Source of the DNA: Candidatus Thorarchaeota archaeon
Lineage (GTDB): Archaea > Asgardarchaeota > Thorarchaeia > Thorarchaeales > Thorarchaeaceae
Assembly (NCBI GenBank): GCA_016933575.1
Contig: JAFGAR010000125.1
Location: forward strand, 1-31,156
DNA length: 31,156 bases
Direction of reading: 5' to 3'
Shown in pieces: positions 13,466 through 31,156 of this stretch (its first letter is position 1; every line of letters starts with the position of its first letter). The position numbers and the translations under genes were made by a program. The notes under the pieces were generated by a model that had not been told where the DNA came from, did not search any database, and saw only the letters and a program-made list of their open reading frames with translations.

Positions 13466-13466
13466 T

Positions 13467-16400
13467 ATGGCTGAAGGCAATTATTTAGATGTAGGACGAG
13501 ATGTTATAGTCGAAAGTCTTCTGGATAAAACAAAAGGGGCATGTATTCTCATTACTGGTTTGCCGCATGATGACTGCGTAGAGCTCAGTAAGCAGGTAGA
13601 AAAGGCATATATTGCATCAAAAAGAGGTTTGAAACTCAAATGTTGTGTTGTATCTGATGAATCTTCAAATAAACAGAGCTCTCTTATTGTTACATCTACT
13701 AAGGTGATCGAACTAAGGAATCTAACAAAAGAACAAGCTCCACCAGATATTCTAACCGTTTTTAAACCGCAAGGGGCAATTAGCGATGCTGACGATTCAT
13801 TCGGACCTAATAACTTTCTTCAGTTATCCTCAGATGCGATTTGGACGAAGGGCTTAGATTCCACTATGAAAAAGGCACTCAAAGATTTGACACAGGTAGA
13901 GAAAAGAAATCTACGAACAGTTATGAAAAGCTCTCCCCTGATTGATTTATACTCTCAAGTTGGGATAGATTTCTTGCTGAAATTCATTCAAGAATCGGAC
14001 CATAACAATTTCATCAAGTCAAACTTGACTTGTATTGGCTTATTCAATGATAGCGAATTGAACTTCGAGGATGATCCAGACAAGTTTGCCGAGCGACTAA
14101 AAAGAAACAATGACTTTCTCGAGAAATTTCCATCCAAATCCACCAGCACAATCACAAAGATCTTGAGAGATAGTGTATCTGATACAGAATCAGTAGTATA
14201 TAAGGAGCTCAAGAAGTATTTCAAAGATAAGAATCGACACTCACTTCATGAGGATATTAGGAATAGTCCCCCAGGAGTTGACTTTGCCAAGATACTTCCA
14301 TTACTTGGAAAACCAGAGAAACTAGTTTTTAGTTGGTCTCCAAAACCTCAACGGATATCTAAATTATTCGATGTCGGTTGGAGACTACGCCCTAAGCAAC
14401 CCCACAAAAAAATCCGGATATCAATTGCTACTATTATAAATGAGGTTGAAGAGAATGAAGTCGATATAAAAACAGTAGATGCTGATGATAAGACTGCTAG
14501 AATAGATATCAGAAGCTACTTGGATAATCATGAATCTGATGTTTATCGCCTCTATCTTACACTATTGCACGAGAATGGTTCTCCTGAAACCAAACTTGAA
14601 GCTGATATTCGAGAAGATGGAAGCGCTGATGAAACAAACATGACTACTCACTCCTTACATTCAGCTCTTTTTGCTTTCCTAAAACACTGTAGAAAAACAA
14701 AGGGTCAAGCTATCGGTGATCTAAAGATAGAAGAGCTAAATGCTAATGGAGTAGATGTTCGGATAAGTTCAGCTAGTTTAGATCAGGACGAAACATACCA
14801 ACTGAATCTAGATGATGCTCTATGGAAATATGAACAGATAGTAGTTGGTGAACCTGACTATATAGGTCCATACGTTGCATCAAAACGCTGGATTCGCGAT
14901 CCTGCTGCGGCAAATAAACCCAAACGACTAATAACGCTTAATCATACCGAAATAACTCAAAACCTGCAAAGTATCAATGAAGATCTGGTTAGCAAGTATA
15001 GTGAGTTTGTTGAAGCTAGGAAAAAACTGTTTAAGGTGATAAAAGAGCGACCTATTCAAAGCATATCTCTTCTATCGAAAGAAAAGGATAGAGAACTGCT
15101 GATAGACGACTACACAACCAAGTACTCTGAGTTGCTATCAATCCTTTATGAGTCTCTAGTATCTATGAGTGGGAGTTCTATTCGTTCAATGAAAGATATT
15201 CTTCACTATATTCTATCTTGTGATATCCTATATATAAAAGAAAATTCGAATTTGGTATCTCTAATCCCTCCATCTAATCCAACGCGACTTTCATGGATTA
15301 AAGAAACTGAATTAGCAATTCTTGAGATTAAGGAAAGCATTGATTCTGGCGATATTAGCTCCAAGAAGAGCAAAACACTACCCAGTATTAACAATCTGTC
15401 ACTTGAAGGCATACTTGGGAGTATAATTCCTCCTGTGATTTGGACTCCCATGGAACAAGATCCAGATCATGTGTGTTTGTTTCGAGGTACAGTTAATGAC
15501 ATGTGGGCAATTCTTTCGAATCCTAAAGGCGATTCTCCTTTGCTTGCCCAGGAAATTATGGGATACCTGACTAAATCTTTGGATTATGATGTTGGTGCAA
15601 GCGATAGTAGAATATTACGGAAACGGATAAGAAAGTACCTTGATATCTATCCTCACATTGATACAATAGTAATCAATGCAATCAATCCCGGAAGTGGAAG
15701 CTCTGTATTGGATGCGATCCTTAATTTACCTGAGGAACAGCACTCAAGGAATTTCAGGATCAATCTTCTTTCTTTTGAAATGTCTAATAATATCGACACT
15801 CAAATCGGAGCCTCTTTTGACAACCTCATGAAGGATCCTTATCAAAATGAACGAACATCCAATCTCTTGGAAGAACACAGCAATCCATTGATACCAGGTC
15901 TTAGATACTCAAAGAAATGGATAAAAAGAGGTGAATTCACAGAGATCCCACTTGCACACATATCAATTCTCTTTGACTCCTTTTCAGAAAGAGTTGCAGT
16001 TGATACAATTGATGTAGGCGAACTAATAGCGTCCACAACGAGCGATGGTAGACTCGCTCAATTCGACAGCAAATATTCTGAAGGAACTCAAAGTGTCTGG
16101 ACACGAGCAGTCCACTTCAGTGATTCAGATAGTGAAAACAATTCCCTTCTCAATAAGTATTCAGAATGCATTGTAAAATGCTATAAAACAGCTAGTGATA
16201 CACAAGTAATTGGTACCAGAATATCTCTGCCCAAACAAGAGAAGGATTATCTCGAGAAGATATACAAAAGATCTGATTGGGTCATACTTGTTGACAGATA
16301 CATCGGTATTGAGATGCTAGATAGAAGTTTTGAAGAGTCCAAGCCTCGATATTTGATCGATTATGCTCCAGAATTCCAAGAGGAGTTAGGCTATCGAATA

Positions 16401-18410
16401 ATCACAAGCACTGAAAGTACCAAAGCCATTACAGATCAGGTTTCAGAAAGACTTTCTGACTATTCTTGGTACGCCGATTCACATCTTAACAAAGTGATAG
16501 ATGCGCTAAATTCCCTCTCAGGCATTCTATTAATGAAATACATACAGACAAGAAATCTTTCTTCAGAAACAACTACTCTTGCTTTGGCAATGCTGGCTTT
16601 GAAAGAATGGAACAACCAAGCTAAGGACACGAAGATTGTGATAGTGCCGATCGATGCCTATCAAGATCTTTGGTTTGAGGACTCTCCGAGTAAAAAGGCA
16701 GAAAGAGCTGACCTATTGGCTATTTGCATATCCAGATCTGGCGATGTCAGTTTCACAATGATCGAAAGTAAATGTGAGAATAGCAAATCACCTATCTTTC
16801 CACAAAGGCAGAGAGCAAGACGGCAACTTAGAACTGGGAAGAAATACTTAGAACGAAGGTTCAATCTAAAAAGCAATCGTTTTCTTCATGAGATGACACG
16901 TTCTGAATTATTTGGGATCATTCGATTCCACTTTGAGAAGCAGAAACGATTTGGACATGTTATGTCATTTGACTCAATTGATGAAATTGATCTTTTCAGA
17001 AAAATCCGCACAAATCTTCTTGAATCCTCTTTTGAGGTAGATTTTGATACAATCACACTATATTTCATTCCCAAAGCGAAACCAAGATCTTACTCACTAA
17101 CAGATCCTGATGTCGTCATAGCAGATGAATCTATGTGTACGGGGATAATTCAGGAGGATGTCAAAAAATCTACTGAATTGATCGACAATCTTGTAGGCTC
17201 AAGGTGTACTAGTAAATCAAAATCCCCTCTTGAGGAAAAAGACGAATCTACTTATGATGAATCAGATGGAAATAAAGATCTCTCTACCGATTCCGAGATG
17301 CAACATGAAGAAACACCAAAGCAATCCCAGAAGGAACACACCAAAAGGAAAAAGCCCACAGATGCATTCAATGATATACTTCTGGGATATCGGCGTGACA
17401 AGGAAATTACTTGGTCTCCCTATGATGGGGCTAGTCCACATCTAATAATCGTAGGAATGACGGGTGTTGGCAAGACACAAACTATGAAGGCAATAATTGA
17501 GGAATTGGATCTGAATGGTGTTCATTCTCTTATATTCGACTTTAATGATGACTATATCGATGATGAATTTGTAGAGCGAGCCGATTGTGTTGTGCTGAAT
17601 GCTGCAGATGGCTTAGATCTGAACCCTCTTGCTATTGGGGAGAATAAAATGAACACCTCATATGAAGTGGCTGGGATTATTGCTAGGGTATATGATTTAG
17701 GAAAACAGCAAGAACGTACACTGAGAAACGCAATCAAGGAAGCCTATGATACAACTGAAGAGCTCCCTTCATTTGGACGCATTGGAGATATTTTGCGAGA
17801 TTGGGCCGAGAATTCGGATTCGGCAAACAAGAGAAACACTGCTGATTCTCTGCTAGGAAGAATAGAATCATTGTTCGACTTCGGTATATTTGGTGGTACC
17901 GATGTGAATCTACTCCAACGAATATTCCATAAGACACATGTCATCCGCCTTCAAACACTGAAGGCCGATCCCAAAGATGCATTGAAGAATGCGGTTGTCG
18001 AACTAGTTTTGAATCACCTTCAACAAGAAATGTATGCAAGAGGGCACAGTGATATGGCTGTGTACTGCATGGTAGATGAAGCACATCGTTTGACCTATAA
18101 GAACTCCCCAATTCCCAAACTCGTTCGAGAAGCCCGCAAATACGGAGTTGGAATCATTCTCAGCTCACAGATGGTGAAGGATTTCGATGATGAAGTTCTC
18201 TCAAATATAGGTGCCACAATCGCCTTCAAAGTCAGTTCAGATGAAGCTACAAAAATCGCTAAATCTATGACGAGTTTAAGAGAGGATCAGCTCGATATAA
18301 TTACGAAACTGTTAACTCTTCCTAGATTTGAAGCGATAATACGATCTCAAAAATATCCTGATTATACCGAGGTGAAGATCCTTCCCTTTTTCCAAAGGCA
18401 AGATAATTAG
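13467..18410 (+). CDS. DptH/MAD8-like giant protein: PD-(D/E)xK nuclease motif plus C-terminal HerA/FtsK-type ATPase
   Basis: IELRN, PPSNPTRLSW, INAINPG, SDWVILVDR, LIDY, RADLL...IESK, Walker A HLIIVGMTGVGKT, Walker B MVDEAH, REARKYGVGIILSSQ. AGGTGA RBS before ATG 13467. Confidence 0.75.
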   Translation: MAEGNYLDVGRDVIVESLLDKTKGACILITGLPHDDCVELSKQVEKAYIASKRGLKLKCCVVSDESSNKQSSLIVTSTKVIELRNLTKEQAPPDILTVFKPQGAISDADDSFGPNNFLQLSSDAIWTKGLDSTMKKALKDLTQVEKRNLRTVMKSSPLIDLYSQVGIDFLLKFIQESDHNNFIKSNLTCIGLFNDSELNFEDDPDKFAERLKRNNDFLEKFPSKSTSTITKILRDSVSDTESVVYKELKKYFKDKNRHSLHEDIRNSPPGVDFAKILPLLGKPEKLVFSWSPKPQRISKLFDVGWRLRPKQPHKKIRISIATIINEVEENEVDIKTVDADDKTARIDIRSYLDNHESDVYRLYLTLLHENGSPETKLEADIREDGSADETNMTTHSLHSALFAFLKHCRKTKGQAIGDLKIEELNANGVDVRISSASLDQDETYQLNLDDALWKYEQIVVGEPDYIGPYVASKRWIRDPAAANKPKRLITLNHTEITQNLQSINEDLVSKYSEFVEARKKLFKVIKERPIQSISLLSKEKDRELLIDDYTTKYSELLSILYESLVSMSGSSIRSMKDILHYILSCDILYIKENSNLVSLIPPSNPTRLSWIKETELAILEIKESIDSGDISSKKSKTLPSINNLSLEGILGSIIPPVIWTPMEQDPDHVCLFRGTVNDMWAILSNPKGDSPLLAQEIMGYLTKSLDYDVGASDSRILRKRIRKYLDIYPHIDTIVINAINPGSGSSVLDAILNLPEEQHSRNFRINLLSFEMSNNIDTQIGASFDNLMKDPYQNERTSNLLEEHSNPLIPGLRYSKKWIKRGEFTEIPLAHISILFDSFSERVAVDTIDVGELIASTTSDGRLAQFDSKYSEGTQSVWTRAVHFSDSDSENNSLLNKYSECIVKCYKTASDTQVIGTRISLPKQEKDYLEKIYKRSDWVILVDRYIGIEMLDRSFEESKPRYLIDYAPEFQEELGYRIITSTESTKAITDQVSERLSDYSWYADSHLNKVIDALNSLSGILLMKYIQTRNLSSETTTLALAMLALKEWNNQAKDTKIVIVPIDAYQDLWFEDSPSKKAERADLLAICISRSGDVSFTMIESKCENSKSPIFPQRQRARRQLRTGKKYLERRFNLKSNRFLHEMTRSELFGIIRFHFEKQKRFGHVMSFDSIDEIDLFRKIRTNLLESSFEVDFDTITLYFIPKAKPRSYSLTDPDVVIADESMCTGIIQEDVKKSTELIDNLVGSRCTSKSKSPLEEKDESTYDESDGNKDLSTDSEMQHEETPKQSQKEHTKRKKPTDAFNDILLGYRRDKEITWSPYDGASPHLIIVGMTGVGKTQTMKAIIEELDLNGVHSLIFDFNDDYIDDEFVERADCVVLNAADGLDLNPLAIGENKMNTSYEVAGIIARVYDLGKQQERTLRNAIKEAYDTTEELPSFGRIGDILRDWAENSDSANKRNTADSLLGRIESLFDFGIFGGTDVNLLQRIFHKTHVIRLQTLKADPKDALKNAVVELVLNHLQQEMYARGHSDMAVYCMVDEAHRLTYKNSPIPKLVREARKYGVGIILSSQMVKDFDDEVLSNIGATIAFKVSSDEATKIAKSMTSLREDQLDIITKLLTLPRFEAIIRSQKYPDYTEVKILPFFQRQDN

Positions 18411-18460
18411 GGGATCACACTCCCTATCGATTCAGATAGGATGCACATTGAGCTGATAGC

Positions 18461-19366
18461 ATGAACGGAAAGAACAACTCCTTTCAAGAATCTCCACGGC
18501 CAATCATGAAATGGGCAGGGGGAAAACGTTCACTTCTTCCTACTCTATTGAATAACTTGCCAAGCACCTTCGGAGATTATTATGAACCGTTCTTTGGAGG
18601 TGGTGCTTTTTACTTTAAGTTATATAAGGAAGACTTCGTCCGGAAGGCAACTATTTCTGATTTGAACGCTGATTTGATTTGGTTGTATACCGTTATTAGA
18701 GATAAACTGAATGAATTCATAGATTCTTTTGATCTCACCTACTTCGTAAGTACAAAAGAACGATTTTACAAGATCCGTTCTGAATTCAATAGGGCAAAAG
18801 CCTCAAAGGAAAGGTCATTAATTCAAGCAATCAGATTGATGTATCTAAACAAGACTTGCTTTAATGGACTATATAGAGTAAATAGCAAGGGTGAATTCAA
18901 TGTTCCCTATGGCGGCTACAAAAACCCCTCCTTCTACGATGAGGATAATTTGAAAGAGGTAAGCAAAGCACTAGGTTTTGCTGAAATAAGATGTCAGGAT
19001 TTCGAAACTGTAGTTCAATCATCCTCCAAAGGGTCCTTTGTTTATTTTGATCCTCCCTATGCCCCACTAAGCGATACGGCGGATTTCACTTCCTATACTA
19101 AGGCCGGGTTCAGTTTTTCGGAGCAGGAGAGACTTGCGAAAGTCTTCGAATCTTTAGATAGAAAAGGTTGCTTTGTAATGGAGAGTAACTCAGCAACAAA
19201 AGCAATTCGTGATCTTTATTCTCACTTCAATATATTGGAGGTCAATGCAAGTAGGGCTATCAGTGCTGATGGATCCAAGAGGGGGAAAATCAGTGAACTC
19301 CTGATAACTAATTATGAAGCCACCGCCTTAACGCGCAAGCAGACTCTTCTTTCTGATTATGGGTAG
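18461..19366 (+). CDS. dam: Dam-family (D12, alpha class) DNA adenine methyltransferase
   Basis: MKWAGGK, YYEPFFGGGA, LNKTCFNGLYRVN..G.FNVPYG, FVYFDPPY, SNS, ELLITNY. Confidence 0.93.
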   Translation: MNGKNNSFQESPRPIMKWAGGKRSLLPTLLNNLPSTFGDYYEPFFGGGAFYFKLYKEDFVRKATISDLNADLIWLYTVIRDKLNEFIDSFDLTYFVSTKERFYKIRSEFNRAKASKERSLIQAIRLMYLNKTCFNGLYRVNSKGEFNVPYGGYKNPSFYDEDNLKEVSKALGFAEIRCQDFETVVQSSSKGSFVYFDPPYAPLSDTADFTSYTKAGFSFSEQERLAKVFESLDRKGCFVMESNSATKAIRDLYSHFNILEVNASRAISADGSKRGKISELLITNYEATALTRKQTLLSDYG

Positions 19367-19436
19367 CATTTGATATGGATTCCACTAGATTTTTCATCAA
19401 GTTATCCTCTAATGAATATTAGTTGGAGGTATAACT

Positions 19437-20012
19437 ATGGAGAATGATCGTAATGAAACTAGGATCGGAAAAATTAGTAATCTTCTCTCCCAATCTCTGA
19501 TAGAGTTCGAAGCACTCCCTAAGACTTTCAAAATACCTCAAGCAAATGATATAATAAAGGTTAGGGATTTTCCGGTAGCCGTTTCATTTGGATATGATGA
19601 TAGTAGGAAAATTGCAAGATATTTTGAATTCGATAAGAGGCAAAGCTCCTACTATCGAGATGCTGCACAGGGGCTAGGATTTGTTGAACTTGATCATCGT
19701 AATAAATACAAATTAACATCACTGGGAGAATGGTATTCTAAACTGAATACAAAAGAGAGAAACCATGTCCTTGTTAGAAGACTTGCTAAGCATCCTATCA
19801 TGGCTGAGATACTAGCGACACTGAATAAAGGCCAAGAGGTGACAATGTCTGATATTGAACAAATAATATCTAAGCATTCTTCATTGGGAGGGAGCACCAT
19901 TCCCAGAAGAGCATCAACTATTCTTAGTTGGTATCGATGGATCGAAATGGAAATCGGTTTGATTTCAGTTTGTAACGGAGTAATCTCGCCAAATGTTCAA
20001 ACTCGCCTTTGA
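19437..20012 (+). CDS. Stand-alone winged-helix protein resembling the C-terminal domain of Dam-associated restriction-like proteins (DUF7226-like, tentative)
   Basis: IPQAND...FEFDKRQSSYY.DAA..LG...YKLT.LG and ST..RRASTI.SW..W. GGAGGT RBS. Confidence 0.6.
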   Translation: MENDRNETRIGKISNLLSQSLIEFEALPKTFKIPQANDIIKVRDFPVAVSFGYDDSRKIARYFEFDKRQSSYYRDAAQGLGFVELDHRNKYKLTSLGEWYSKLNTKERNHVLVRRLAKHPIMAEILATLNKGQEVTMSDIEQIISKHSSLGGSTIPRRASTILSWYRWIEMEIGLISVCNGVISPNVQTRL

Positions 20013-20699
20013 TGGTGTTGATCTTCAAATTGGTGTAGCCACAATTGAATCTGGATGATCTCTAATCAGCTATTAATAACATGAACATTAAAACGAAGCT
20101 GACAATATGTCTTACTGAGGATACTGTGAAACTGCGAGTCTATTGGCCTCAATGGCAAATAGCATATCTAATAAGCAGTATGATACAAAGAGGAATTTTC
20201 GAATTCTCATGAAACAGGACAACCCCAAATACAACCCCAAACATCAGATCTGCTACGAGATCTTGATATCATGAGAAAGACATCAATTAGTAGTTTTAGA
20301 ATTGTATTTGATACGATTCATTCGATATATTTAGGTGAAGATCCCCTCTAATTCAGAGCTGAATTGACCATTTTGTCATATCAGAATACACGGCATAACG
20401 GATTTGCAAATCTCTGCTTTGTCATCTGTTCATCGCTATGCAGGAAATAAATGCAAGGTCTACATGGATCGTCAGGCTACTAGAAAATCTCTCATGGGAT
20501 CTATCAGGATTATCAGTGCCCTGGCGAAACCTATAGAACTACTTCTTCATGAAGCAAATAGCATGACAACATCTTCGCCTTATATTCGGAAACAAAGAAA
20601 AACCTAAAGAGCCGCACCACCTCATGAAAATGATGCAGCGCGTTCAATTGCTCTCGAAGACTCAATCTATGAGCAATATAATACTAGGAGCGATAAAGA

Positions 20700-22043
20700 A
20701 TGGATGAAAAGAAACCTTCTCTAAAAAAGGAGGTCGATGCATGGATTTCCAAGAATTCTGAGAATCTGCTTTTTCTCGAGTGCACTATTTTTTGGAGTAA
20801 ATGTATTGTACACTACCCAAATATTGTATCACCTGAAATAATTGGTGATGTCGTATCAAATCTATCCTCGCGTTTCCAAGAGAAATCGATCACTGAAACA
20901 ATGGGAGGTATATTGCACGAGCTACGGAAAATTGGGATAGAATCACCAGATCGACTCTTAGCAGAAGCAAGAAAAGCATTGAATAAATATGGATTGAAGC
21001 GTCTCATGAGTAATGTCCGTAGTAATTCTTCTGCTAATAGTGACTATAAGCGAGTGCTGCAGCTATTTGCAGAATTTATCGACAGAGAGGATCTATGGGG
21101 TACTGATCTAGATGTATTTAGTGTCACCAAATTGAATTCACTACTGAAAGTTTCGAACCTATTTGACTGTGAAGAATTACAGAAGAAGGGCGGGATTTAC
21201 AGGATCCATAGCTCTAAGGAGCAAAAAGCTGTATACATTGTTCCGCCGCATATTTCGTTGTATCTATATGAGATATTTGATATTGAAGAGGATATCATTT
21301 GCCCTCACTGTGATAAGGTCTTTGACACTGAAGAGGATCTTGAAGCACACGTATCGACATGCCCAAACTTACCAACTATTGTTTCACCAATACCTAAGTG
21401 TGAAAAATGCGGTTTGGAATTCAAATCTGAAACAGATCTTGAAATTCATCTGCATCAACATCATATGGAAATAGATGAATTACCACATCCCCCCTTTCCA
21501 AAATGTAGCGATATAGGATGTGGGGCTTCATTTTTAGTTAGGGCTAATTTCAGGAGACAAGACGCTCATAGATATCTTAAGGCAATTCTCGAAACAGCGA
21601 AAGAATACGTTAAAATTCAAGACAACTATTTACTCAGTGATTCTTTTCAATATTTACAATACATAGAGCCTAATGTATCAATATACCTACTTACTCACTT
21701 TAAGAAGGATAAGGATCTATTTCGGAACATGACGAAATTTTCTGCAATAATAGAAGAATTGGATCAACTGAAGAAAAAGGGGCATTCAGTTAAAGTAGCA
21801 CATATGAAATCCTCCGCTGTTCATGATAGATTGATCATCACTGAAAACTACTTATGGGGCCTATCAAATTCACTTCATGCTTTGGGTGGTAGTAAAATAT
21901 CTTCGGTCTTCTATATTCCGATAGATCAGAAGCAATACATTGAGCGAGCTTTCGATAACTATTTCAAAAATGCCAAGAAGCTCAGCTTGACTGATCTTGA
22001 GGACCTCGGCAATAATCTATCAGTTGGATGGTACAGGGAGTAG
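20700..22043 (+). CDS. Zinc-finger (C2HC + C2H2) protein with C-terminal PLD-like domain
   Basis: CPHCDKVFDTEEDLEAHVSTC and CEKCGLEFKSETDLEIHLHQHH; C-terminal VKIQDNYL...HDRLIITENYLWGLSNSL. GGAG RBS. Confidence 0.65.
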   Translation: MDEKKPSLKKEVDAWISKNSENLLFLECTIFWSKCIVHYPNIVSPEIIGDVVSNLSSRFQEKSITETMGGILHELRKIGIESPDRLLAEARKALNKYGLKRLMSNVRSNSSANSDYKRVLQLFAEFIDREDLWGTDLDVFSVTKLNSLLKVSNLFDCEELQKKGGIYRIHSSKEQKAVYIVPPHISLYLYEIFDIEEDIICPHCDKVFDTEEDLEAHVSTCPNLPTIVSPIPKCEKCGLEFKSETDLEIHLHQHHMEIDELPHPPFPKCSDIGCGASFLVRANFRRQDAHRYLKAILETAKEYVKIQDNYLLSDSFQYLQYIEPNVSIYLLTHFKKDKDLFRNMTKFSAIIEELDQLKKKGHSVKVAHMKSSAVHDRLIITENYLWGLSNSLHALGGSKISSVFYIPIDQKQYIERAFDNYFKNAKKLSLTDLEDLGNNLSVGWYRE

Positions 22044-22197
22044 TCAGTTCAAAATTTCGTTAGTACATCCGACACGAATTTGAAAGAACACTGATTCTTA
22101 GAATGAGAACTCGCAAACAGATTGTACCAGATCTCATCAAGATATCATTTGAAGGTCCTTTGATTCTAGTTAATTGCTATAGGAGTAGTATGAATAT

Positions 22198-24516
22198 CTA
22201 CGTTGCTTTGATTATTCCTTCATTCATCATTACTACATGATCAACATGTTCTTCCAATCCTGGAACATGGCTAACTAACACAATCTGATCGAACGACTCT
22301 CTAAGAGTAGTTCTTATTGAATTCATGATTCCCACTCTGCGTTCAGAATCACTGCTTCCCAGTGGCTCATCGAGAAATAGAAACTGCGGTCGAGTATTCT
22401 TTCTATGAGGGAGGAGGGCCAGTGCAAAGGCTATCCTCGTGGCCAAGAGGAATTGATCTTCAGTCCCTCCACTGAAGATATCCTTTGGGAGGAAATCATT
22501 AGCTTCCCTACAGAAGACAGCAACGTCATACGTATCTGATAGTCTTGCTGCAGCATATCTCCCGTTTGTTATGGATGGAAGTATCTTGGAGATATTCACC
22601 TCCACGCTGGGGCGAACTCGCTCTCTGAGGTTCTCAGCCGTCTTCGAAACAGCCTCAACAATGGTTTTGGAAAGATCCAGGTTATGTCGTGTCTTCTGGA
22701 CCTGCTCTTCTTGTTGGATTACACGGTCATCGATATCTGTGTGAGTATCCAAGAATTCCTGTTTCTCATCCAAAGATTTGGAGTAGTTGTCAATCCTCTC
22801 ATTGAGTGTGGATATTTTGCTGGTTAAATCTTTGACAATCTCTCTTTGATTCTCTAGATTCTCCTTAGAGAACACCAAAGTACCTAAGTCAGGAAGATCA
22901 AGATGATCAAGAGCTCTTTGCTTAGAGATAATCTCAGTTTCCTTTCCTTCTATATCCCCCTCGATAACGTCCCGTTTGGAAACATCTTTCTCAAGTGATG
23001 CTATCTGTTTTGTTGTTGTTGCTCTCTCTGTATTGAGCTCTTGAAATCGTTCTATAGAGTTTCGCGCACAATCGAGAAGATCTTGATGTGAGTCGATATC
23101 GAGGAGGTCAGAAATCTTTGAAACCAAATCCGTCAGGGCACTGTGAGATCTTTCAATGGTCTGCGACACATCTGTCCGTTTTGTGGACAGATCAGTGATT
23201 CTTTCTGCGTTCTCTTCGATCTTAGTCTGTGCTCTCTGATAGTTTGAATATCTCAAAGCTGTATCTGCTTTCTTCTGTTTGAAGCTAACTGTCTTGAGAT
23301 ACCATGCGATGATATATACCAGAAAGACAAGAGGTAGTACTACAAATAGCAGATTGATCAATAGAAGCATTGAAGATGCGCCTGCAAGTATAGCGGCACC
23401 TCTTACATATCGTGAGTCTGGTGGCGATTGATTGAGCAGTGCAATTTCCTCTTCAGAAGGGGCTATTGCATCAGCATCACATTGAAGTTGAACACCACGC
23501 TGATCAACCAATTCAAGCTCGTGATCTATGTCATCCAAACGTGCTCTTTCCACATCCAATGAATCAAGGATCTCTTCTACCCTGGAAACATCACTTTCAA
23601 CCTCATCGAGAATCTGGAGATCTACCATTCTCTCTCTGTGTTGTATTAGTTCAGCTTCTTTTCCAATGAGTTGATCTAGTGATTCATTGAGAAGTCCTTT
23701 CTGTTCATTCAGAGCAGATATCTTGGATTCTATCTTCTCTCTTTCTATGAGAATATCATCATACTGATATAGGAGTTTTAGATTTGCATTCTCAGAAGCT
23801 AGTTGAGCTTCGGTAGAATCCCGCTCCTTGGTTGACACTTCGATATTCTGATTAAGTTCTCTCACACTATTTTCAATCTCTCGAACCTGCACCTGCTCCT
23901 CGCGTAGGCTACCAAGTCGATTCTCTTGGATAGTCAGTTCTCCATGGCGTTTGGGTGTTCCTTCTAGGTCTCGAATTATCGCTTTATGTTCATTCAGTAC
24001 ATCGTTAAACTCATTCAAGTTCATGAAGACATTGATTATCTCTTTCCTATCACTAGCAGATTGCTTGATGAGGTGGTTGAGATCCTTCTGAGCAACAACG
24101 CAACTTGATACCAATTCTTGATATGATACATCTCCCATACGAGCAAGGATAGTGGTATTTACGCCTTTAATACTGGTTTCCAGTGATTTTTCCTTCCCAT
24201 TAGGATTGACTTCTACCAGACTTGCCGTATTGCCTTTGTTCCTGAATATCCTTCTATCCACTCTATACTTGATTCCTGCTATCTCAAAGATGAGCGACAC
24301 GAAGGCACTATCAGAGTTATGGTTAATCATCAGTGTGTGATTGGCACTACGATTCGGTTTCAAAGGTGCGCCATAAAGTGCATAGACGATTGCCTCCATG
24401 ATCGTTGATTTTCCACTCTCATTGGGTCCTCGGATGAGAGTAACTCCGTCCTTAAATTCGAGATCCTTGACATCAAGTTTCTTGAAGTTGATAGCAGTTA
24501 GTGAAACCAGTTTCAT
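22198..24516 (-). CDS. rad50: Rad50/SbcC-like SMC ATPase with central hydrophobic hairpin
   Basis: Walker A GPNESGKST, Q-loop VAQ, signature FSGGT, Walker B/D-loop FLDEPLGSSD, H-loop VSH, long coiled coils, no CxxC hook. Confidence 0.88.
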   Translation of the reverse strand: MKLVSLTAINFKKLDVKDLEFKDGVTLIRGPNESGKSTIMEAIVYALYGAPLKPNRSANHTLMINHNSDSAFVSLIFEIAGIKYRVDRRIFRNKGNTASLVEVNPNGKEKSLETSIKGVNTTILARMGDVSYQELVSSCVVAQKDLNHLIKQSASDRKEIINVFMNLNEFNDVLNEHKAIIRDLEGTPKRHGELTIQENRLGSLREEQVQVREIENSVRELNQNIEVSTKERDSTEAQLASENANLKLLYQYDDILIEREKIESKISALNEQKGLLNESLDQLIGKEAELIQHRERMVDLQILDEVESDVSRVEEILDSLDVERARLDDIDHELELVDQRGVQLQCDADAIAPSEEEIALLNQSPPDSRYVRGAAILAGASSMLLLINLLFVVLPLVFLVYIIAWYLKTVSFKQKKADTALRYSNYQRAQTKIEENAERITDLSTKRTDVSQTIERSHSALTDLVSKISDLLDIDSHQDLLDCARNSIERFQELNTERATTTKQIASLEKDVSKRDVIEGDIEGKETEIISKQRALDHLDLPDLGTLVFSKENLENQREIVKDLTSKISTLNERIDNYSKSLDEKQEFLDTHTDIDDRVIQQEEQVQKTRHNLDLSKTIVEAVSKTAENLRERVRPSVEVNISKILPSITNGRYAAARLSDTYDVAVFCREANDFLPKDIFSGGTEDQFLLATRIAFALALLPHRKNTRPQFLFLDEPLGSSDSERRVGIMNSIRTTLRESFDQIVLVSHVPGLEEHVDHVVMMNEGIIKAT

Positions 24517-25674
24517 CTACTCCCTCCCTCCTATTTGGCTCAAACAGAGAGTCTTAGCTTCCTGAACAAGACTCTTCTTTTCTTCTGACTCCGCAGCCTC
24601 TATCATAGAATCGAAGTATGCAGCCAGCTCCTCATAGGGGTCTAGGTACCCTACGATCTCAAATGCCTCAGGCTGCTTGATATGTAAATCACGTTCCTCG
24701 ATCAACGTCTTGAAGACTTTCTCATCCCCTTTTCTGATGAGGAACTGTCGGTCATACGCAGCCAATCCCTCCGGTGTTGCCACTCCAGTGACAAGTATCC
24801 GTAGTATTGTGGAAGGATCTAGGTCTTGCTTGAGCATCTCCTCAACTACCTGATTGATTTGGTCATCAGGTTTGACCTCAATGCTTTCAGTTCTCATAGG
24901 TCTGGCTTCCACGGGAATTTGTACAATGTCTATCTTCGATCCATCTACTTCGATGTAGACGAAGCTCTTTTCATCCTCCTCTTCGTTGAAAGTAACTCGC
25001 TCTGTGCTACCTGGAATAATGATATGTCTTGTTCCAACCCTTTTCTGCTGTGCAGCATGATAGTGACCTGCAATAGTTAGATCGAATCCTGATGGAATCC
25101 TCTGTACCTCTATCAAAGGTACTTCTCCCGCAAAGCCTTGAAATCCTGCTATCGGATAATGCAGCATCAAGATGTTGATATCTGCTGAAGGAGTAGGTAT
25201 CTCAATATTCAGTGGATCCTCATCACCTTGAAGCAGTGGATTATATCCGACTCCCACAATAGTGACTTCTTTCCCGTTGCATTTGAGATGGATTGCTTCA
25301 ATATCTGTCGGATTTTCGAAAAAATGGATTATTCCCGAGTTGCCATGAGAACGGAGGGGTGAAACTCCTGTACTAATACCCCTTGGTGTATCATGATTTC
25401 CTCCAATAACAAACGAGTTCACTCCGGCATCAGACAATCGTTTGAATTGGTGCATTACCCACGCATGAGTGCCATTGCTTGGTCGCATCCCATCGAAAAG
25501 ATCTCCTGCAACTAGAAAGATGTCTGCTTTCTTCTCAATAGCAAAATCCACCGTTTTCAGAAAGCCTTTGCGAAAATCAGCTCTTCTTGCATTAGCCCTT
25601 GATCCATATCTTGTGCATTTCGGATCAAGGTGCGCATCTGCCGTAGCCACGATTTTCACACTACTCTTACTCAT
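24517..25674 (-). CDS. mre11: Mre11/SbcD-like metallophosphoesterase nuclease
   Basis: TADAHL, AGDLFD, GGNHD, LMLH, AGHYH, PGSTER. ATG 25674 overlaps the end of herA. Confidence 0.92.
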   Translation of the reverse strand: MSKSSVKIVATADAHLDPKCTRYGSRANARRADFRKGFLKTVDFAIEKKADIFLVAGDLFDGMRPSNGTHAWVMHQFKRLSDAGVNSFVIGGNHDTPRGISTGVSPLRSHGNSGIIHFFENPTDIEAIHLKCNGKEVTIVGVGYNPLLQGDEDPLNIEIPTPSADINILMLHYPIAGFQGFAGEVPLIEVQRIPSGFDLTIAGHYHAAQQKRVGTRHIIIPGSTERVTFNEEEDEKSFVYIEVDGSKIDIVQIPVEARPMRTESIEVKPDDQINQVVEEMLKQDLDPSTILRILVTGVATPEGLAAYDRQFLIRKGDEKVFKTLIEERDLHIKQPEAFEIVGYLDPYEELAAYFDSMIEAAESEEKKSLVQEAKTLCLSQIGGRE

Positions 25675-27277
25675 CCTCGAATGCCCCTCCAAACTTCTCT
25701 TGGGATTCCTTATGTTTGGCTACTACCTTATCGATACCAACCTCCTTCCTAGCACTTCTTAGAGCCGATACGATATCGATATCTGCACCACCCTCTCTCG
25801 TTCTGCGTCTTCGAATCTTGACCATAACTGGAGCTTTTGCTATTGGACCAACGATGACTGCTTCTCCAGGATTAAGCCCCGGCAGGTCCGCAAGAAGATC
25901 TGAGCTCAATCTCTCTGAGCTCTCAGCTACTGAGTTCTGATCCTTTGGATTGGTCAGCTTCATTATTATCTGGCTGTTACATTGGCTGAGCGTATCAGCA
26001 TGTATCTTGGAAGGTCTCTGAGTTACTACTATGAGGAACACGCCAAACTTCCTTCCTTCTGCTGCGATGCGTTTCAGGATGGAACTACTCATAGTAGAGT
26101 TCTCTCTAGATACGAAATTGTGCGCCTCTTCAACAAGTACGAACACAGGATGCGGGAATCTTCCTGATGAGACCTCCTCATAGACCTCACGAAGGAGCTT
26201 TGCCACAATATAGTCCATACTGGAATGATCAAGCCCTGAGAGATCAAGGGTTGAGAGCTGCATCGGAGCAAGGAGTCTTGATAGTTGAGTTGATGAGCCT
26301 CCAAATACTCTCATTCTAACTAGGTCCCTTGCGAAGCGAACTGCTGAAGCATAGTCACTTCTCTCCCCCTGAGTGGCTGCTGTTTCCATATGACCCAATA
26401 GAGTATCCAAAAGATCATCTGGTGTGTACGCGGAGTTAGATTGTCTAAGCTCCCCAAGAACCTTGCTCATCGTTTCTCTGATTCTTCGGTAACTCGGTGC
26501 AACGCCTGCGATCTCAAACACCTCATCGTCAGAAAGATCTGAGAAAGCAATGGTATATTCCTCAATGGTGCCTATCTGACTCTCTTCATAGCGACCTGTA
26601 CTCGAAGGATTTCGAAATACCTTGCATCTGTCGCTAAGCTCGTGAATTGATGCGTCCTCATTTCTGCCCATCAATACATAGTCCGCGTGCGGATCGATGA
26701 TGAGAACAGTAGCTCCTTTCTCGAGAAGCTCCTCGAGAATGACTCCGGCTGCATAGCTCTTTCCTGCTCCAGTCTGGGCGATTATTGCCATATGTCTCCT
26801 CAGCCCAGTTACTGAGATGGACACATTTACAGATCTTCGCGTAATCAAAGATCCAACATCTAGAGCCTCATCGGCTTCAAACGAGTAGAACCTCTCCAAT
26901 AGGCTTTCTGAAGCAAGTCGCACTTCACTTCCCGGAGTGATCGATCGGCGTGGGAACAGCGCATCCCTCTCATCATCCTGCATATATCCAAGGATGCGAG
27001 CTTTTCCATAGACTCTGATATCATCTATATCTGCAGCCTTGATCCTTCGAATGGCTTCAAATCCTATGTATTGACTGAGGGCATCACTGGCCGAGAAAAT
27101 CGCTTCTACTTGCGCTAGGACATCGACCTCTGTCAAGACACCATCAATAAGCTCCATGGACTGAATACTAACATAGTCCAAGCGTGATGGGCACCTTTCA
27201 GTTGTACTGGAGAATATGAATGATGTGGAGCTTGCCTCTCCAACAATGATTCCGATTGCTTCATGCATAGTAGACAC
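25667..27277 (-). CDS. herA: HerA bipolar DNA helicase/translocase
   Basis: N-terminal HAS barrel (IGIIVGE), RHMAIIAQTGAGKS, IIDPHADY, VLVEEAHNF, AAEGRKFG, TQRPSK, LSQCNSQII. Confidence 0.93.
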   Translation of the reverse strand: MSTMHEAIGIIVGEASSTSFIFSSTTERCPSRLDYVSIQSMELIDGVLTEVDVLAQVEAIFSASDALSQYIGFEAIRRIKAADIDDIRVYGKARILGYMQDDERDALFPRRSITPGSEVRLASESLLERFYSFEADEALDVGSLITRRSVNVSISVTGLRRHMAIIAQTGAGKSYAAGVILEELLEKGATVLIIDPHADYVLMGRNEDASIHELSDRCKVFRNPSSTGRYEESQIGTIEEYTIAFSDLSDDEVFEIAGVAPSYRRIRETMSKVLGELRQSNSAYTPDDLLDTLLGHMETAATQGERSDYASAVRFARDLVRMRVFGGSSTQLSRLLAPMQLSTLDLSGLDHSSMDYIVAKLLREVYEEVSSGRFPHPVFVLVEEAHNFVSRENSTMSSSILKRIAAEGRKFGVFLIVVTQRPSKIHADTLSQCNSQIIMKLTNPKDQNSVAESSERLSSDLLADLPGLNPGEAVIVGPIAKAPVMVKIRRRRTREGGADIDIVSALRSARKEVGIDKVVAKHKESQEKFGGAFEDE

Positions 27278-28598
27278 GTCTGTACCCCCTATTGTATGCG
27301 AAATCCGAGTTGATCTCGTTCTCGATCACTCTCTTGTAGAGCCTGTCAACAGTTTCCCGCCTCAACCTGACCTTCTCATCGACACGTTTTAGCCATATAT
27401 TATAGTTCTCAGGTCCCCCGTACCCTCCTGTCAGGACCTCCATCACATCAGTTACATTGCACTCAAGGAACTTGGGTAGGGTTGGTTCCCATATATTCTC
27501 CTCTTGACCTACCATCCATGCTGGGATATCCACTCTAATTGGAGTATCGCTTGGATGTAGTCTGGCATGAAACGTCACGATTGCTGGCAGTTCCCGCAAT
27601 CTTGGCAGGACCCGTCTTGCAAGTTGCCAAATCTCATCAGGATCATCGGACGCCTCAATCACTGAGCCGTATCTTTTTGCGATATATCCGTCTGTATTCG
27701 AGAAGGCACTCATCAACGTCCTTCGCGGATGATCTGTCATGGTCATGAGAAACGGTCTGGTGTATCCTTTCCCACGCAGGAGTGCTTGCATAAGGACATG
27801 ATCTGAAATGGGATGCTGTGCGATCTCAACTAAACTTGCTATCGCATCCCAATCCTTGCCTTTCTTTTGCTTGAGTTCCCGAAGCAAACCCTTTGCAATT
27901 CCTGGCGGATAGTCTGGCGACATTACTGCGTGCTTGATTCTTTCGATCATATCCGGTGTTATTGTGGTCTGAGCGTGTCTTGTCACATCCTTTATCTTAT
28001 CTAGTATCAACGCGCGGAGAAAATGACTCACCTTGCTATCCTTACTTACCGCAATGATACCTATTCCTCTCTCCCTGCATCGCTCAAGCAGTATTAGCAA
28101 TTGATCATAATAGGACAACAGAAACAACTCATCCTGAGGTATTCCAAGCGCGATGGGAAGATGCTGCAGTCTCCCAAAGAGTGATCCATCAAGAAGTATG
28201 TATTTTGTATCTTCCCTATTTGCGCTTTCAAGTGCTACAGCATTCTCGCAGTACTCCATCCGAAGAGAAGTGTATCTGTCAACCTTGCCAGCTGATACAG
28301 TCATGGGGATTATTCCACTGTCAAGATGTCGAATATCTCCCCCATTTGAGAGAGCCAGCCCTCTTGTTATCCACCAAGTTGCCCCATTCCAAAGGGGTCT
28401 GGTCGCTATGCTGCCATCTGTACCAACAACTCCATCAGGAGGATCTAGCGATTCAACAGGAAGACCGAACCAATTCTGTGAGGCAAGAGGACCTAGCAAA
28501 TCCTTGTAGGCATCGTCTAGATTACCAGACAGACCCTCTTTCCATCGTTTGATATCTTCGCGGACCAGTACGACCATCTCCTCAAGATACTCAGGCAC
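27261..28598 (-). CDS. nurA: NurA 5'-3' nuclease
   Basis: VGTDGS, ILLDGSL, IAVSKDS, C-terminal Y..WL..VD..VRL. GGAGGT RBS 6 nt before GTG 28598; overlaps the herA start. Confidence 0.88.
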   Translation of the reverse strand: MPEYLEEMVVLVREDIKRWKEGLSGNLDDAYKDLLGPLASQNWFGLPVESLDPPDGVVGTDGSIATRPLWNGATWWITRGLALSNGGDIRHLDSGIIPMTVSAGKVDRYTSLRMEYCENAVALESANREDTKYILLDGSLFGRLQHLPIALGIPQDELFLLSYYDQLLILLERCRERGIGIIAVSKDSKVSHFLRALILDKIKDVTRHAQTTITPDMIERIKHAVMSPDYPPGIAKGLLRELKQKKGKDWDAIASLVEIAQHPISDHVLMQALLRGKGYTRPFLMTMTDHPRRTLMSAFSNTDGYIAKRYGSVIEASDDPDEIWQLARRVLPRLRELPAIVTFHARLHPSDTPIRVDIPAWMVGQEENIWEPTLPKFLECNVTDVMEVLTGGYGGPENYNIWLKRVDEKVRLRRETVDRLYKRVIENEINSDFAYNRGYRRVYYA

Positions 28599-28751
28599 TA
28601 GATAACCTCCTTTGATGCTCAAATACTATGAACGTATGAAGCTGTGCACTATGGTGCTATGCTTCTGCCTCCATTACCACATCCTATACTGTGCAGAACT
28701 TACCAATAATCTCATTGATGGAAACTTTCCACACTTTAGGAAAGTGTTTCA

Positions 28752-29318
28752 TCATCCCCTGCTAACTCTCCCAAATCCAAGTCTTCTATTGACCTCTGAC
28801 ATTTCGAATATACAGGTCATGGCATCATGCTCTCCCAATTCCGCGAAGCTCTTTCTTCGAGCCTCATCATCATATGATTTTAGGAGGTAGTAATTGATAG
28901 CCACAGGAATTCCATAGCTATACGAAAGAATCAATGATGCTACGACTGCGCTACTTGCCATGATCTTACGTCCTGCTGTAGCATCAACAATCACTCTTGA
29001 GTCATCGGTTGTTCGACTCAATACGCCCTCAATGATAGTTCTTATGGCGCCTTCGAGGTCTGCTTCAGGTATCCAGATGTAATCCGATGCTTGCGGTCTT
29101 GGTAGACTTGGTGCTGATGTTGAGATCGATAAAGCATAATTGATCGACTCAGTGGTTTTCATGCTTTGCGGGGAGGGCTCTCCGCTTTCAGTGAGTGAAA
29201 CTATGAATGAGAGGTTCCTGATGTGCACATCAGAAAAGTTTGAGATGAATGAGCAGAGAGAATTCACGCAAGCTATGGGGGAAACTCCAACAACTGCATA
29301 ATAGTCTACATATTCCAT
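28752..29318 (-). CDS. Stand-alone CARF-domain protein (Csx14/ring-nuclease-like)
   Basis: N-terminal YYAVVGVSP and CARF signature VIVDATAGRKIMA; no effector domain; next to cas2. Confidence 0.75.
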   Translation of the reverse strand: MEYVDYYAVVGVSPIACVNSLCSFISNFSDVHIRNLSFIVSLTESGEPSPQSMKTTESINYALSISTSAPSLPRPQASDYIWIPEADLEGAIRTIIEGVLSRTTDDSRVIVDATAGRKIMASSAVVASLILSYSYGIPVAINYYLLKSYDDEARRKSFAELGEHDAMTCIFEMSEVNRRLGFGRVSRG

Positions 29319-29484
29319 TGAAAAACCTCGAAGAACCTTTGGATAGTATGCACATATGATATAATGAAGAAACTATCCTGCTGGGTTACAACAATATCAA
29401 ACCCCGAAATCCCCCTTTTGCTCTTCGAAGCGGAATCAGGTAATCGTACTCCTGTGGTAATCGCTCACCAGTCTTTTTCGGGTT

Positions 29485-29787
29485 CTATGCAAACAATAGA
29501 GGTTGATTAACAAGGAATATCTCTCTTTTCTCACCCAATTCCTGAATCTTTTCTCGACAGGTCCTGCAAATAGGTATGATAACAATAGAATCGGTTTCAG
29601 ATCTTTTGATGAGATGTTCTCTTAGAACTGCTTCCAATCTCACCAAATCCTTATCTGTCAAAGAACCTGAGAACGCACTGAACTGGATTCGTTCCAAACC
29701 AAAATCCTTCAGGCTATCGCTTACTTTGTATCTAAGAGAATTCTCTGTAATATCGTAAATTACAATGTATTGCAATGATATCACCAT
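29485..29787 (-). CDS. cas2: CRISPR-associated endoribonuclease Cas2
   Basis: YIVIYDI, R.KV...LKDFGLERIQFSAF.G, DSIVIIPIC..C; overlaps the cas1 stop. Confidence 0.95.
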   Translation of the reverse strand: MVISLQYIVIYDITENSLRYKVSDSLKDFGLERIQFSAFSGSLTDKDLVRLEAVLREHLIKRSETDSIVIIPICRTCREKIQELGEKREIFLVNQPLLFA

Positions 29788-30803
29788 TTAAAGACAAAGG
29801 GTATATAGAAGGCTCTCCCTGTCCGAAGCGTTGAAACAACAGTTTCCACTTGCTTTCTTATGACAGCTTTTACAGTTATCATCGCACTATTATCATAAAG
29901 TCTTTTTTCTAGACGCGCAAGGATGGATTGGGCTAATTCTCTGCGGACTGGTGCGCCCAAATCATTCCCTCCCTCAATGTTCGATCCTCCCGTCAAGAGT
30001 AGTAATTTACATACTTGTGCATCCACAACATAAGCTCGAAACTCCTCCATGATATCCAGAACTAACGATGGTTTCCCTGAACGATCTGAATGCAAGAACC
30101 CTGCAAAGGGATCCAATCCACAACCCACTATTGCAGATAGGACTTCGCTCCTTAGGATTGCATAGCCATAGTTGAGAAGCCGGTTTACATAATCGCCTGC
30201 ATTTCTAGTGATGCGATGAGTAAACTCCTCTTCTCTTGAAGTCAATTTGGCAATAGCGCTCCAATATAACGAAGCAGCATTTCCTTCAAGACCAAAAAGT
30301 GCCTCTTTACCATTGGGATCATGTCCAAGGGAATCTATTTCCAGGATGATCTTTTGAATTTGCTTGCACGTATCTCCTATGTGGTTTCCCAGCTTTGGGT
30401 TTCGTTTCTTGATGTTACGTGCCCTACGGAGTAAGTGCCCCCTTTGATTCTTTATCTTTCCAACTATAAACATCGAGGCCAAGAAGAATCCTAATTCCGT
30501 ATTGGATTCCACATATTGAGCTTTCCGCAACGAAACCATCCCGTGATCGAGTGGATTGGCAAGGTATGCTGTTGTTTGATCTGAGTAGCTATTCACATGG
30601 ACCGGTATCATGTAGTCCATCGCAAGGGTGAGCGCATCACATGTTACACTAGCTCCCTTTGTAGGCAAGATGATCCTATTCACTTTGCATGCAGCTATCT
30701 CAATTTCCGGTCTATCTGGGTTACAGATTATGAAACGCTTTCCTCTTTTCCTTAACGATGTTCCGTACTCATTTATGATAATAGTAGTTGTCCCGTCCCT
30801 CAT
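29781..30803 (-). CDS. cas1: CRISPR-associated integrase Cas1
   Basis: YGTSL.K, GKIKNQ, LFGLEGNAA..YW, N.LLNYGY..L, GLDPFAGFLH, SLVLDIMEEFR..VVD. ATG 30803 lies 30 nt downstream of a TATA box. Confidence 0.96.
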   Translation of the reverse strand: MRDGTTTIIINEYGTSLRKRGKRFIICNPDRPEIEIAACKVNRIILPTKGASVTCDALTLAMDYMIPVHVNSYSDQTTAYLANPLDHGMVSLRKAQYVESNTELGFFLASMFIVGKIKNQRGHLLRRARNIKKRNPKLGNHIGDTCKQIQKIILEIDSLGHDPNGKEALFGLEGNAASLYWSAIAKLTSREEEFTHRITRNAGDYVNRLLNYGYAILRSEVLSAIVGCGLDPFAGFLHSDRSGKPSLVLDIMEEFRAYVVDAQVCKLLLLTGGSNIEGGNDLGAPVRRELAQSILARLEKRLYDNSAMITVKAVIRKQVETVVSTLRTGRAFYIPFVFKW

Positions 30804-30832
30804 GATTTTTCCCAGAAGCACTTCGCGCTATA

Positions 30833-30840
30833 CTATATAA
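30833..30840 (-). promoter_or_regulatory. TATA box of cas1 operon
   Basis: TTATATAG on the minus strand, 30 nt before ATG 30803; consistent with a leaderless archaeal transcript. Confidence 0.5.
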
Positions 30841-30849
30841 GGAACAGCA

Positions 30850-31119: not shown

Positions 31120-31156
31120 ATTGCAAAAGTAGATCCCGTGTTTAGGGAATTGCAAC
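31120..31156 (+). CRISPR. First 37-nt CRISPR repeat (array truncated by window end)
   Basis: ATTGCAAAAGTAGATCCCGTGTTTAGGGAATTGCAAC: 37 nt, internal stem TCCC/GGGA, 3' handle ATTGCAAC, near cas1. Only one copy is visible. Confidence 0.7.

Follow-up and report, generated by a model that had tools for sequence, protein, structure and literature searches.

A hook-less Rad50 with a predicted membrane hairpin at its coiled-coil apex, encoded in a NurA-HerA-Mre11-Rad50 operon of a Thorarchaeota genome

Canonical Rad50 and SbcC proteins dimerize through a CxxC zinc hook at the apex of their coiled coils, and this hook is treated as a defining and universal feature. What, then, occupies the apex of a Rad50 that lacks it? 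The question is posed by a rad50-like gene of a Candidatus Thorarchaeota archaeon (assembly GCA_016933575.1), which lies on contig JAFGAR010000125.1 within the stretch of 31,156 nucleotides that we analyzed and refer to below as the window. We consider it likely that this gene encodes the Rad50 of a NurA-HerA-Mre11-Rad50 module in which a membrane-inserted hairpin has replaced the hook and which processes DNA ends at the cell periphery.

The product of the gene, P0001, is a Rad50 rather than another SMC (structural maintenance of chromosomes)-like protein, because a profile of its family places the solved Rad50 heads of Methanocaldococcus jannaschii and Pyrococcus furiosus at the top of its matches (E values of 6e-44 to 1e-36), with Escherichia coli SbcC behind them (4e-21) and SMC proteins far behind, and because Rad50 is the best Foldseek match to its AlphaFold2 model. 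Pfam finds AAA_23 (69 bits), SMC_N, and, more weakly, the YhaN-type head AAA_27 (41.7 bits). The best NCBIfam matches are Rad50 equivalogs, although their 70 to 105 bits fall well short of cutoffs of 700 to 1087 (NF003034 scores 105 bits against 700, and the other Rad50 models score 70 to 101 bits against 847 to 1087). The split ABC ATPase head is complete, with Walker A, Q-loop, signature, Walker B, and H-loop all in place: in a 36-sequence alignment of the family, residues G30, N32, E33, G35, and K36 of Walker A and Q143 of the Q-loop are invariant, as are the columns that hold the C-terminal motifs (Table 1). AlphaFold2, run with the family alignment, returned a mean pLDDT (predicted local distance difference test) of 82.8 and the usual head on a long antiparallel coiled coil, in which helices 193-350 and 393-649 pack against each other within one chain.

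It is the tip of this coiled coil that sets P0001 apart. Exactly 35 consecutive residues, amino acids (aa) 373 to 407, are free of Asp, Glu, Lys, Arg, and His, and the run begins at 0.48 of the protein's length. A preliminary description of the window had counted about 35 uncharged residues at the midpoint and had seen no CxxC anywhere in the 772 residues, and both observations hold: the four cysteines (139, 346, 483, and 669) are nowhere paired as CxxC. The string quoted in that description, YVRG...WYLK, corresponds to aa 370-408 (window positions 23293-23409) and lies inside the interval it had assigned, 23290-23412. An uncharged run of at least 35 residues arises in just 5 of 20,000 shuffles of this protein, 32% of which is charged, and the peak 19-residue Kyte-Doolittle window (aa 385-403) reaches 2.95, where about 1.6 is the classical threshold for membrane segments. 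In the AlphaFold2 model, the tip is built from a helix (369-387), a loop (388-392, with the turn at N388-V392), and a second helix that runs from 393 to 472. A search of the whole genome with PF04423 returned no match in the hairpin rad50 and a 23-bit match in a second rad50, on contig C131 of the same assembly.

The flanks of the hairpin point in the same direction. Across 113 distinct family members, Lys and Arg are in excess on both sides (per 10 aa, +3.5/-1.0 on one side and +2.7/-0.7 on the other, where the background is +1.55/-1.62), which fits an in-in topology with both ends in the cytoplasm, as an intramolecular coiled coil would require. The first hairpin helix is rich in Gly, Ala, and Ser (34% against a background of 19%), and small-xxx-small-xxx-small patterns occur in 55 of 110 family members, which suggests tight helix packing. 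That a hairpin of the membrane type has replaced the CxxC hook, and that it would tether the protein to a membrane, is well supported by sequence features.

These features mark a large and coherent family rather than a quirk of one gene. All 58 of the closest homologue clusters (E ≤ 1e-57; about 670 to 840 aa) carry an uncharged stretch at their midpoint, mostly of 33 to 50 residues, and none carries CxxC; more distant homologues with a CPTC motif have no hydrophobic peak. A genomic scan with one genome per species yielded 78 loci and 64 full-length proteins, among which the hydrophobic peak is present in 63 and CxxC in none. An exhaustive profile search of 1.8 billion representative sequences (50% identity) gave 4,176 matches at E ≤ 1e-30; among the best 150 of these, which include longer forms of 890 to 1390 aa, 132 of the 136 proteins of at least 600 aa have the peak in mid-protein, again with no mid-protein CxxC. 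In total, a midpoint CxxC was seen in none of the roughly 250 family members examined. Viral contigs from IMG/VR served as a control and supplied 23 Rad50-like proteins, all of them distant, of which 20 have a midpoint CxxC and none a hydrophobic peak. Column identity in the hairpin equals that of the coiled-coil arms (0.33), and the hairpin varies in length, with its hydrophobic character retained throughout. This persistence of hydrophobicity while the sequence itself varies, together with the Lys/Arg-rich flanks on both sides, makes the membrane-tethered Mre11-Rad50 complex envisaged in the preliminary description the most likely interpretation.

Carriers of the hairpin span a wealth of lineages, including the Bathyarchaeia, the Thermofilaceae (among them a metagenome-assembled genome [MAG] labeled Infirmifilum sp.), the Hermod-, Prometh-, Baldr-, Odin-, Heimdall-, and Thorarchaeota, records labeled Nitrososphaeria, and, in the Bacteria, the Blastocatellia and Caldilineae. 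No description of an archaeal transmembrane Rad50 was found in the full-text literature that we searched, coverage of which is incomplete, so that its absence from the literature is unproven; a 2026 review describes the NurA, HerA, Mre11, and Rad50 proteins of Asgard archaea as uncharacterized and makes no mention of membranes (PMC13748450). What is new here is a large family that replaces the Rad50 hook with a predicted membrane anchor and usually keeps the full NurA-HerA-Mre11-Rad50 set.

To judge from their sequences, the four genes of the window (Table 1) form a complete, translationally coupled operon for DNA-end processing in which every gene appears intact, and the Mre11 translation keeps the phosphoesterase motifs DxH, GDxxD, GNHD, and GHxH. 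The association of the hairpin with Mre11 is constant, since an mre11 gene lies immediately upstream of the hairpin rad50 in all 61 loci that hold upstream sequence. More than 30 loci, from Asgard archaea, Thermofilaceae, Bathyarchaeia, and one Acidobacteriota contig, share the order nurA-herA-mre11-rad50, which also accompanies longer Rad50s of 1075 aa (Promethearchaeota), 921 aa (archaeal), and 1345 aa (Blastocatellia). About two dozen loci of soil Bathyarchaeota (L105-L162) hold mre11 and the hairpin rad50 alone, with neither herA nor nurA found up to 8.8 kb upstream.

Table 1. Positions of the hairpin rad50, its motifs, its operon partners, and neighboring features in the window
Feature	Position	Strand	Basis
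rad50-like ATPase (P0001), 772 aa, hook-less, apical hydrophobic hairpin	22198..24516	-	open reading frame and translation
C-terminal ATPase motifs: signature S682-G683-G684, Walker B D716-E717, H-loop H750	22267..22473	-	invariant alignment columns
Motif hPxLPxGxxFSxELL, aa 540-556, breaking the C-terminal coiled-coil arm	22849..22899	-	family alignment
Hydrophobic block, aa 373-407	23296..23400	-	hydropathy, uncharged run, AlphaFold2 model
Walker A GPNESGKST, aa 30-38	24403..24429	-	translation
Mre11 nuclease, 391 aa, abutting rad50	24517..25692	-	Pfam Metallophos; NCBIfam Mre11/SbcD models
HerA helicase/translocase, 536 aa, 26-nt overlap with mre11	25667..27277	-	Pfam DUF87/HerA central domain 1.2e-35; NCBIfam helicase_HerA 3.7e-69
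NurA nuclease, 453 aa, 17-nt overlap with herA	27261..28622	-	Pfam NurA 9.4e-18, above cutoff
CARF-like protein, 188 aa, between cas2 and nurA (context)	28752..29318	-	no Pfam match
cas2 and cas1 (context)	29485..30821	-	Pfam CRISPR_Cas2 4.4e-15; Cas_Cas1 9.9e-60
First CRISPR repeat, 37 nt, at contig end	31120..31156	+	repeat ATTGCAAAAGTAGATCCCGTGTTTAGGGAATTGCAAC

The hairpin cassette is present in all 19 Hermodarchaeota genomes, among housekeeping genes. Five of these genomes were checked for other Rad50s: in four, the search turned up neither a hook motif nor a second Rad50-like partner, and the one Mre11/SbcD-family gene that it located adjoins the hairpin rad50. Neighbors in the Hermodarchaeota, the soil Bathyarchaeota, the Thermofilaceae, and other clades are mainly housekeeping genes (for example, those for diphthamide synthase, an MMPL transporter, UDP-glucose dehydrogenase, GMP and CTP synthases, a tRNA synthetase, and a peroxiredoxin), and the recurrent neighbors in the Hermodarchaeota and soil Bathyarchaeota clades are either housekeeping genes or have no Pfam match. 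Taken over the whole survey of hook-less Rad50s with a predicted membrane apex, the hairpin is a family trait, its settings are mostly housekeeping, and the informative contexts in the subclade of the window are of the defense type. Because most settings are housekeeping and the hairpin-type pair is the only Mre11-Rad50 found in most of the Hermodarchaeota checked, we read the hairpin as an ancestral trait of a general end-processing machine, not as an adaptation of defense copies, with some copies that travel or have settled in defense islands.

Several known systems resemble this machine in part. The closest studied analogue, by architecture, is SbcE (YhaN) of Bacillus subtilis, likewise an ATPase of the SbcC/Rad50 type that combines long coiled coils with a hydrophobic center, lacks CxxC, and has a nuclease partner. 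Upon expression, its central domain proves completely insoluble; SbcE acts together with its partner, SbcF (YhaO), in double-strand-break repair and transformation, and it accumulates at the poles of competent cells (PMC2811018). Unlike P0001, however, SbcE is bacterial, is about 960 aa long, has no HerA or NurA partners, and has a center that is not described as transmembrane (PMC2811018). The likeness in sequence seems limited to the ATPase head: BLAST against a YhaN-named protein of 1072 aa aligns the head only (47% over 49 aa and 28% over 159 aa), and in a head-domain tree YhaN-like sequences fall outside the archaeal clade, on long and weakly supported branches. P0001 accordingly does not appear to be a routine YhaN-type member, a possibility that the preliminary description had raised.

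The canonical archaeal set of P. furiosus, M. jannaschii, and Sulfolobus (PMC390275 as cited in PMC9905601) shares with the window the same four proteins, a coupled operon, and the closest ATPase head. Its Rad50, however, is a soluble protein of about 880 aa with a CxxC hook, whereas P0001 is hook-less, has a hydrophobic apex and 772 aa, and sits in an operon that begins with nurA; the usual canonical order is herA-mre11-rad50-nurA. E. coli SbcCD (6s6v and 7yzp) has the same Mre11-Rad50 architecture, and its coiled coils close into a rod on DNA; unlike P0001, it has a zinc hook, is soluble, and lacks HerA and NurA. Lamassu (LmuA-LmuB-LmuC) was considered as well, given that the PADLOC LmuB model PDLC03859 matches P0001 over its full length (1.6e-31) and that Lamassu structures are among its fold matches. 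We rejected this assignment on the grounds that the operon has neither the LmuA effector nor LmuC, that the partner is Mre11, and that Rad50 models and structures score better.

The mechanism that we propose would place the hairpin in the cytoplasmic membrane with both of its ends inside the cell, so that the ATPase head and Mre11 would hang beneath the membrane on the coiled coil, by up to about 25 nm given the roughly 165 residues of each arm. The membrane, possibly aided by packing of hairpin against hairpin, would hold together the far ends of two Rad50 arms in place of the hook. DNA ends would then be recognized, clamped, and resected at the cell periphery, by Mre11-Rad50 first and by HerA-NurA thereafter. 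Where this is the only Mre11-Rad50 found, as in most of the Hermodarchaeota checked, it would presumably carry out ordinary double-strand-break repair. Such a mechanism is made plausible by SbcE/YhaN (PMC2811018) and by the finding that a MukB hinge can stand in for the Rad50 hook in yeast, which implies that the apex need only dimerize (PMC6969161). The family is a natural test of this idea, namely, that the Rad50 apex merely holds two arms together. In the Hermodarchaeota, which are relatives of eukaryotes, resection of DNA ends may take place at the cell membrane, and this would bear on how archaeal chromosomes are organized relative to the envelope. The interest of the family rests on its size, on its spread over both domains, and on its supplying the only Mre11-Rad50 found in an Asgard lineage.

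The assembly that harbors the window is a 3.47-Mb MAG (85.5% complete, 6.9% contamination), and we considered whether the contig might be a contaminant. Its left end matches same-genus genomes at about 68% DNA identity, and the 37-mer at its right end, ATTGCAAAAGTAGATCCCGTGTTTAGGGAATTGCAAC, also opens contig C76 of the same assembly, which has at least 34 copies of it from base 1 onward (positions 1-2480), so the contig probably belongs to this genome. The shared repeat implies that the two contigs join at this point and that the array runs on into C76; the roughly 300 bp that separate cas1 from the first repeat are the leader. On the other side of the cassette lies a defense island (window 7703-22043) with a guanine-plus-cytosine (GC) content of 0.383, near the 2nd percentile of the genome's 6.4-kb windows (mean, 0.421). 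The cassette itself has a GC content of 0.449 (genome, 0.423 ± 0.019; the hook operon described below, 0.44), which is not anomalous; by GC, the cassette shows no sign of a recent arrival, with only the island being an outlier.

The CARF likeness of the 188-aa protein between cas2 and nurA is a lead only and does not imply that this candidate belongs to the module. It rests on an atlas language-model feature score of 0.90 and structural template-modeling scores of 0.65 to 0.73 against stand-alone CARF, Csa3_N, and HFX_2341_N clusters. Elsewhere in the family, locus L212 of the Promethearchaeota has a faint Csa3_N gene just upstream of the cassette, and locus L016 has an HFX_2341_N-HTH gene at a distance of 6 kb from it.

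The same genome carries a second operon on contig C131 (positions ~76884-83349; L020:4884-11349), which encodes a possible NurA, a HerA-like protein (586 aa), Mre11 (441 aa), and a Rad50 of 691 aa with a CPTC hook. The possible NurA is an open reading frame of 430 aa that has no Pfam match and a weak NurA-like match at TKYILLDG...AVSK (E = 0.008). Gene order and the four functions are common to both operons, and the two Rad50s, one with the hook and one with the hairpin, align over parts of the head only (31% over 154 aa). The signature region of the C131 Rad50 reads SYGD instead of SGG. A third NurA-HerA pair lies on contig C64.

Tallied across genomes, hook-type Rad50 occurs in 43 of 43 members of the same taxonomic family, 14 of 14 congeners, and 0 of 19 Hermodarchaeota, whereas hairpin-type Rad50 occurs in 1 of 43, 0 of 14, and 19 of 19, respectively. 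No DNA match to window positions 22000-31156 was found in 20 congeners. Since the cassette is rare in the taxonomic family and has no DNA match among congeners, it is accessory in this genome; the C131 hook operon is the vertically inherited copy and the hairpin cassette the extra, sporadic one. The head-domain tree groups the window Rad50 with metagenomic sequences of about 36% identity in a six-member clade that is well supported, and one of these sequences comes from the sole other hairpin carrier in the same taxonomic family.

How firmly can a membrane-anchored machine at the cell periphery be maintained? A number of observations speak against it. The local pLDDT at the hairpin is low (53 to 70), and the hairpin of the window is short, with 35 residues in two stretches of about 15 joined by a hydrophobic turn, compared with a family median of 42 and 42 to 50 in most relatives; instead of crossing the membrane twice, it may anchor the protein in a re-entrant or monotopic manner. 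Membrane insertion we infer from hydropathy, flank charge, and conservation, and the role as a peripheral resection machine we likewise infer. In the Hermodarchaeota, the fifth genome checked has an additional hook-type pair, the genomes examined are 85 to 91% complete, so that a second Rad50 may have been missed, and there is also an uncharacterized SMC-like protein of about 980 aa. The shortness of the window hairpin would also suit a hydrophobic segment that stays out of the membrane and forms the buried core of a soluble four-helix dimerization domain in place of the hook, as would the small residues of helix 1 and the small-xxx-small-xxx-small patterns in half of the members. Small-residue motifs are, however, also typical of helix packing inside membranes. 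A hydropathy of 2 to 3 over 33 to 54 residues with hardly any polar positions is unlike that of soluble bundles, a specific interface should be conserved where this one is unconserved in sequence and variable in length, and Lys/Arg collars flank it on both sides; moreover, the equivalent domain of SbcE is wholly insoluble (PMC2811018). We regard a soluble core as highly improbable. A two-copy structure prediction of the apex (aa 325-455) scored 0.24 against a mark of 0.42 and is uninformative on whether hairpins dimerize.

The surroundings of the window raise the further prospect of defense at the point of DNA entry, in which the tethered machine would meet viral or plasmid ends and its products would feed Cas1-Cas2 as prespacers, no cas4 being present. 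The cassette adjoins the CARF-like gene, cas2, cas1, the leader, and the CRISPR array, faces the low-GC island on its other side, and is accessory here, as the tally across congeners and the taxonomic family indicates. All four informative contexts of the subclade, the window and three others, are of the defense type (the others hold a Dnd-associated gene and PLD/DpnI_C; methylases, DUF7226, and an SNF2 helicase; and PLDc_2, a helicase, and Cas6), and one bacterial member is flanked by an MmeI-type enzyme on one side and by a trio of TerB, BrxC-like, and helicase genes on the other. There is a precedent in Sulfolobus, where Csa3a, a CARF regulator, switches on the promoters of nurA-herA and mre11-rad50 along with the adaptation genes and where NurA-HerA has been proposed as a source of spacer precursors (PMC5587795). 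Yet Cas1/Cas2 genes lie near just 1 other of the 78 loci (L175), itself an 85-aa fragment match; BLAST found no homologue of the CARF-like gene in the 78 related loci, and Pfam found no CARF among the upstream neighbors of 10 further diverse loci. BLAST also returned no match in related loci for the window's zinc-finger/PLD-like neighbor. The hairpin is, on our reading, ancestral to the family, most of which resides among housekeeping genes, and the hairpin pair is the only Mre11-Rad50 found in most Hermodarchaeota checked. Placement in a defense island amounts to guilt by association, and the GC content of the cassette is unremarkable. Entry defense is thus unlikely. The preliminary description had the tether catch incoming viral or plasmid DNA; the universal Hermodarchaeota cassette, the housekeeping neighbors, and the rarity of Cas1-Cas2 speak against this as a property of the family, and it may hold only for the subclade of the window. 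Within that subclade, the machine might be an immune front end that captures the ends of foreign linear DNA on their way through the membrane and breaks them down, with the fragments passed on to Cas1-Cas2 under the control of the CARF-like protein, an arrangement that we hold to be unlikely; if true, it would give archaea a Cas4-free equivalent of RecBCD-assisted spacer acquisition. The position of the window copy, between a CRISPR adaptation module and a defense island, makes it a candidate link of end resection with immunity.

A tethered complex could alternatively process DNA as it enters or leaves the cell through a membrane channel, a role already proposed for SbcE at the competence pole of B. 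subtilis and for the rad50 and herA genes that adjoin the archaeal Ted DNA-import system. The hook-less SbcE/YhaN, with its hydrophobic center, has a part in transformation and gathers at the poles when cells are competent (PMC2811018), rad50 and herA-like genes are present in the Ted loci of Pyrobaculum and Vulcanisaeta (PMC9905601), and the window HerA matches the model of the DNA-translocating ATPase CedD (2.5e-30), albeit more weakly than that of HerA (3.7e-69). No VirB4/TedB, pilin, or channel gene, however, occurs among the annotated neighbors in the window, in the Thermofilaceae and Thermoproteota loci, or in the recurrent neighbor clusters; the annotated flanks of two Thermofilaceae loci, one Thermoproteota locus, and one Baldrarchaeota locus hold no DNA-transfer genes and hold housekeeping genes instead. 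Coupling to uptake or transfer is, on this balance, quite unlikely, and an anchored machine for general end processing at the cell periphery remains our preferred interpretation.

Several minor observations concern the genes and motifs around this machine. On the Blastocatellia-like metagenomic contig that encodes P0213, a hairpin Rad50 of 1345 aa, the nurA-herA-mre11-rad50 cassette comes after an MmeI-type methylase-nuclease and before three same-strand genes, which encode a TerB_N/TerB_C protein, a BrxC/BrxD-like ATPase, and an Lhr-like helicase. In the Hermodarchaeota, two genes recur downstream on the same strand: one encodes a conserved protein of about 450 aa without a Pfam match (18 loci; e.g., L138:12398-13795) and begins 40 to 1400 nt past the rad50 stop codon, and the other encodes a membrane protein of about 150 aa (17 loci; e.g., L138:13853-14311) and begins about 1.5 to 2.8 kb past it. 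Both may be lineage-specific additions to the module or reflect mere synteny. In P0001 itself, the model shows a loop at aa 537-550 that overlaps the motif hPxLPxGxxFSxELL of the C-terminal arm, in which P542 is invariant and L544 and P545 are at least 90% conserved; this motif could serve as a joint or as a docking site for a partner.

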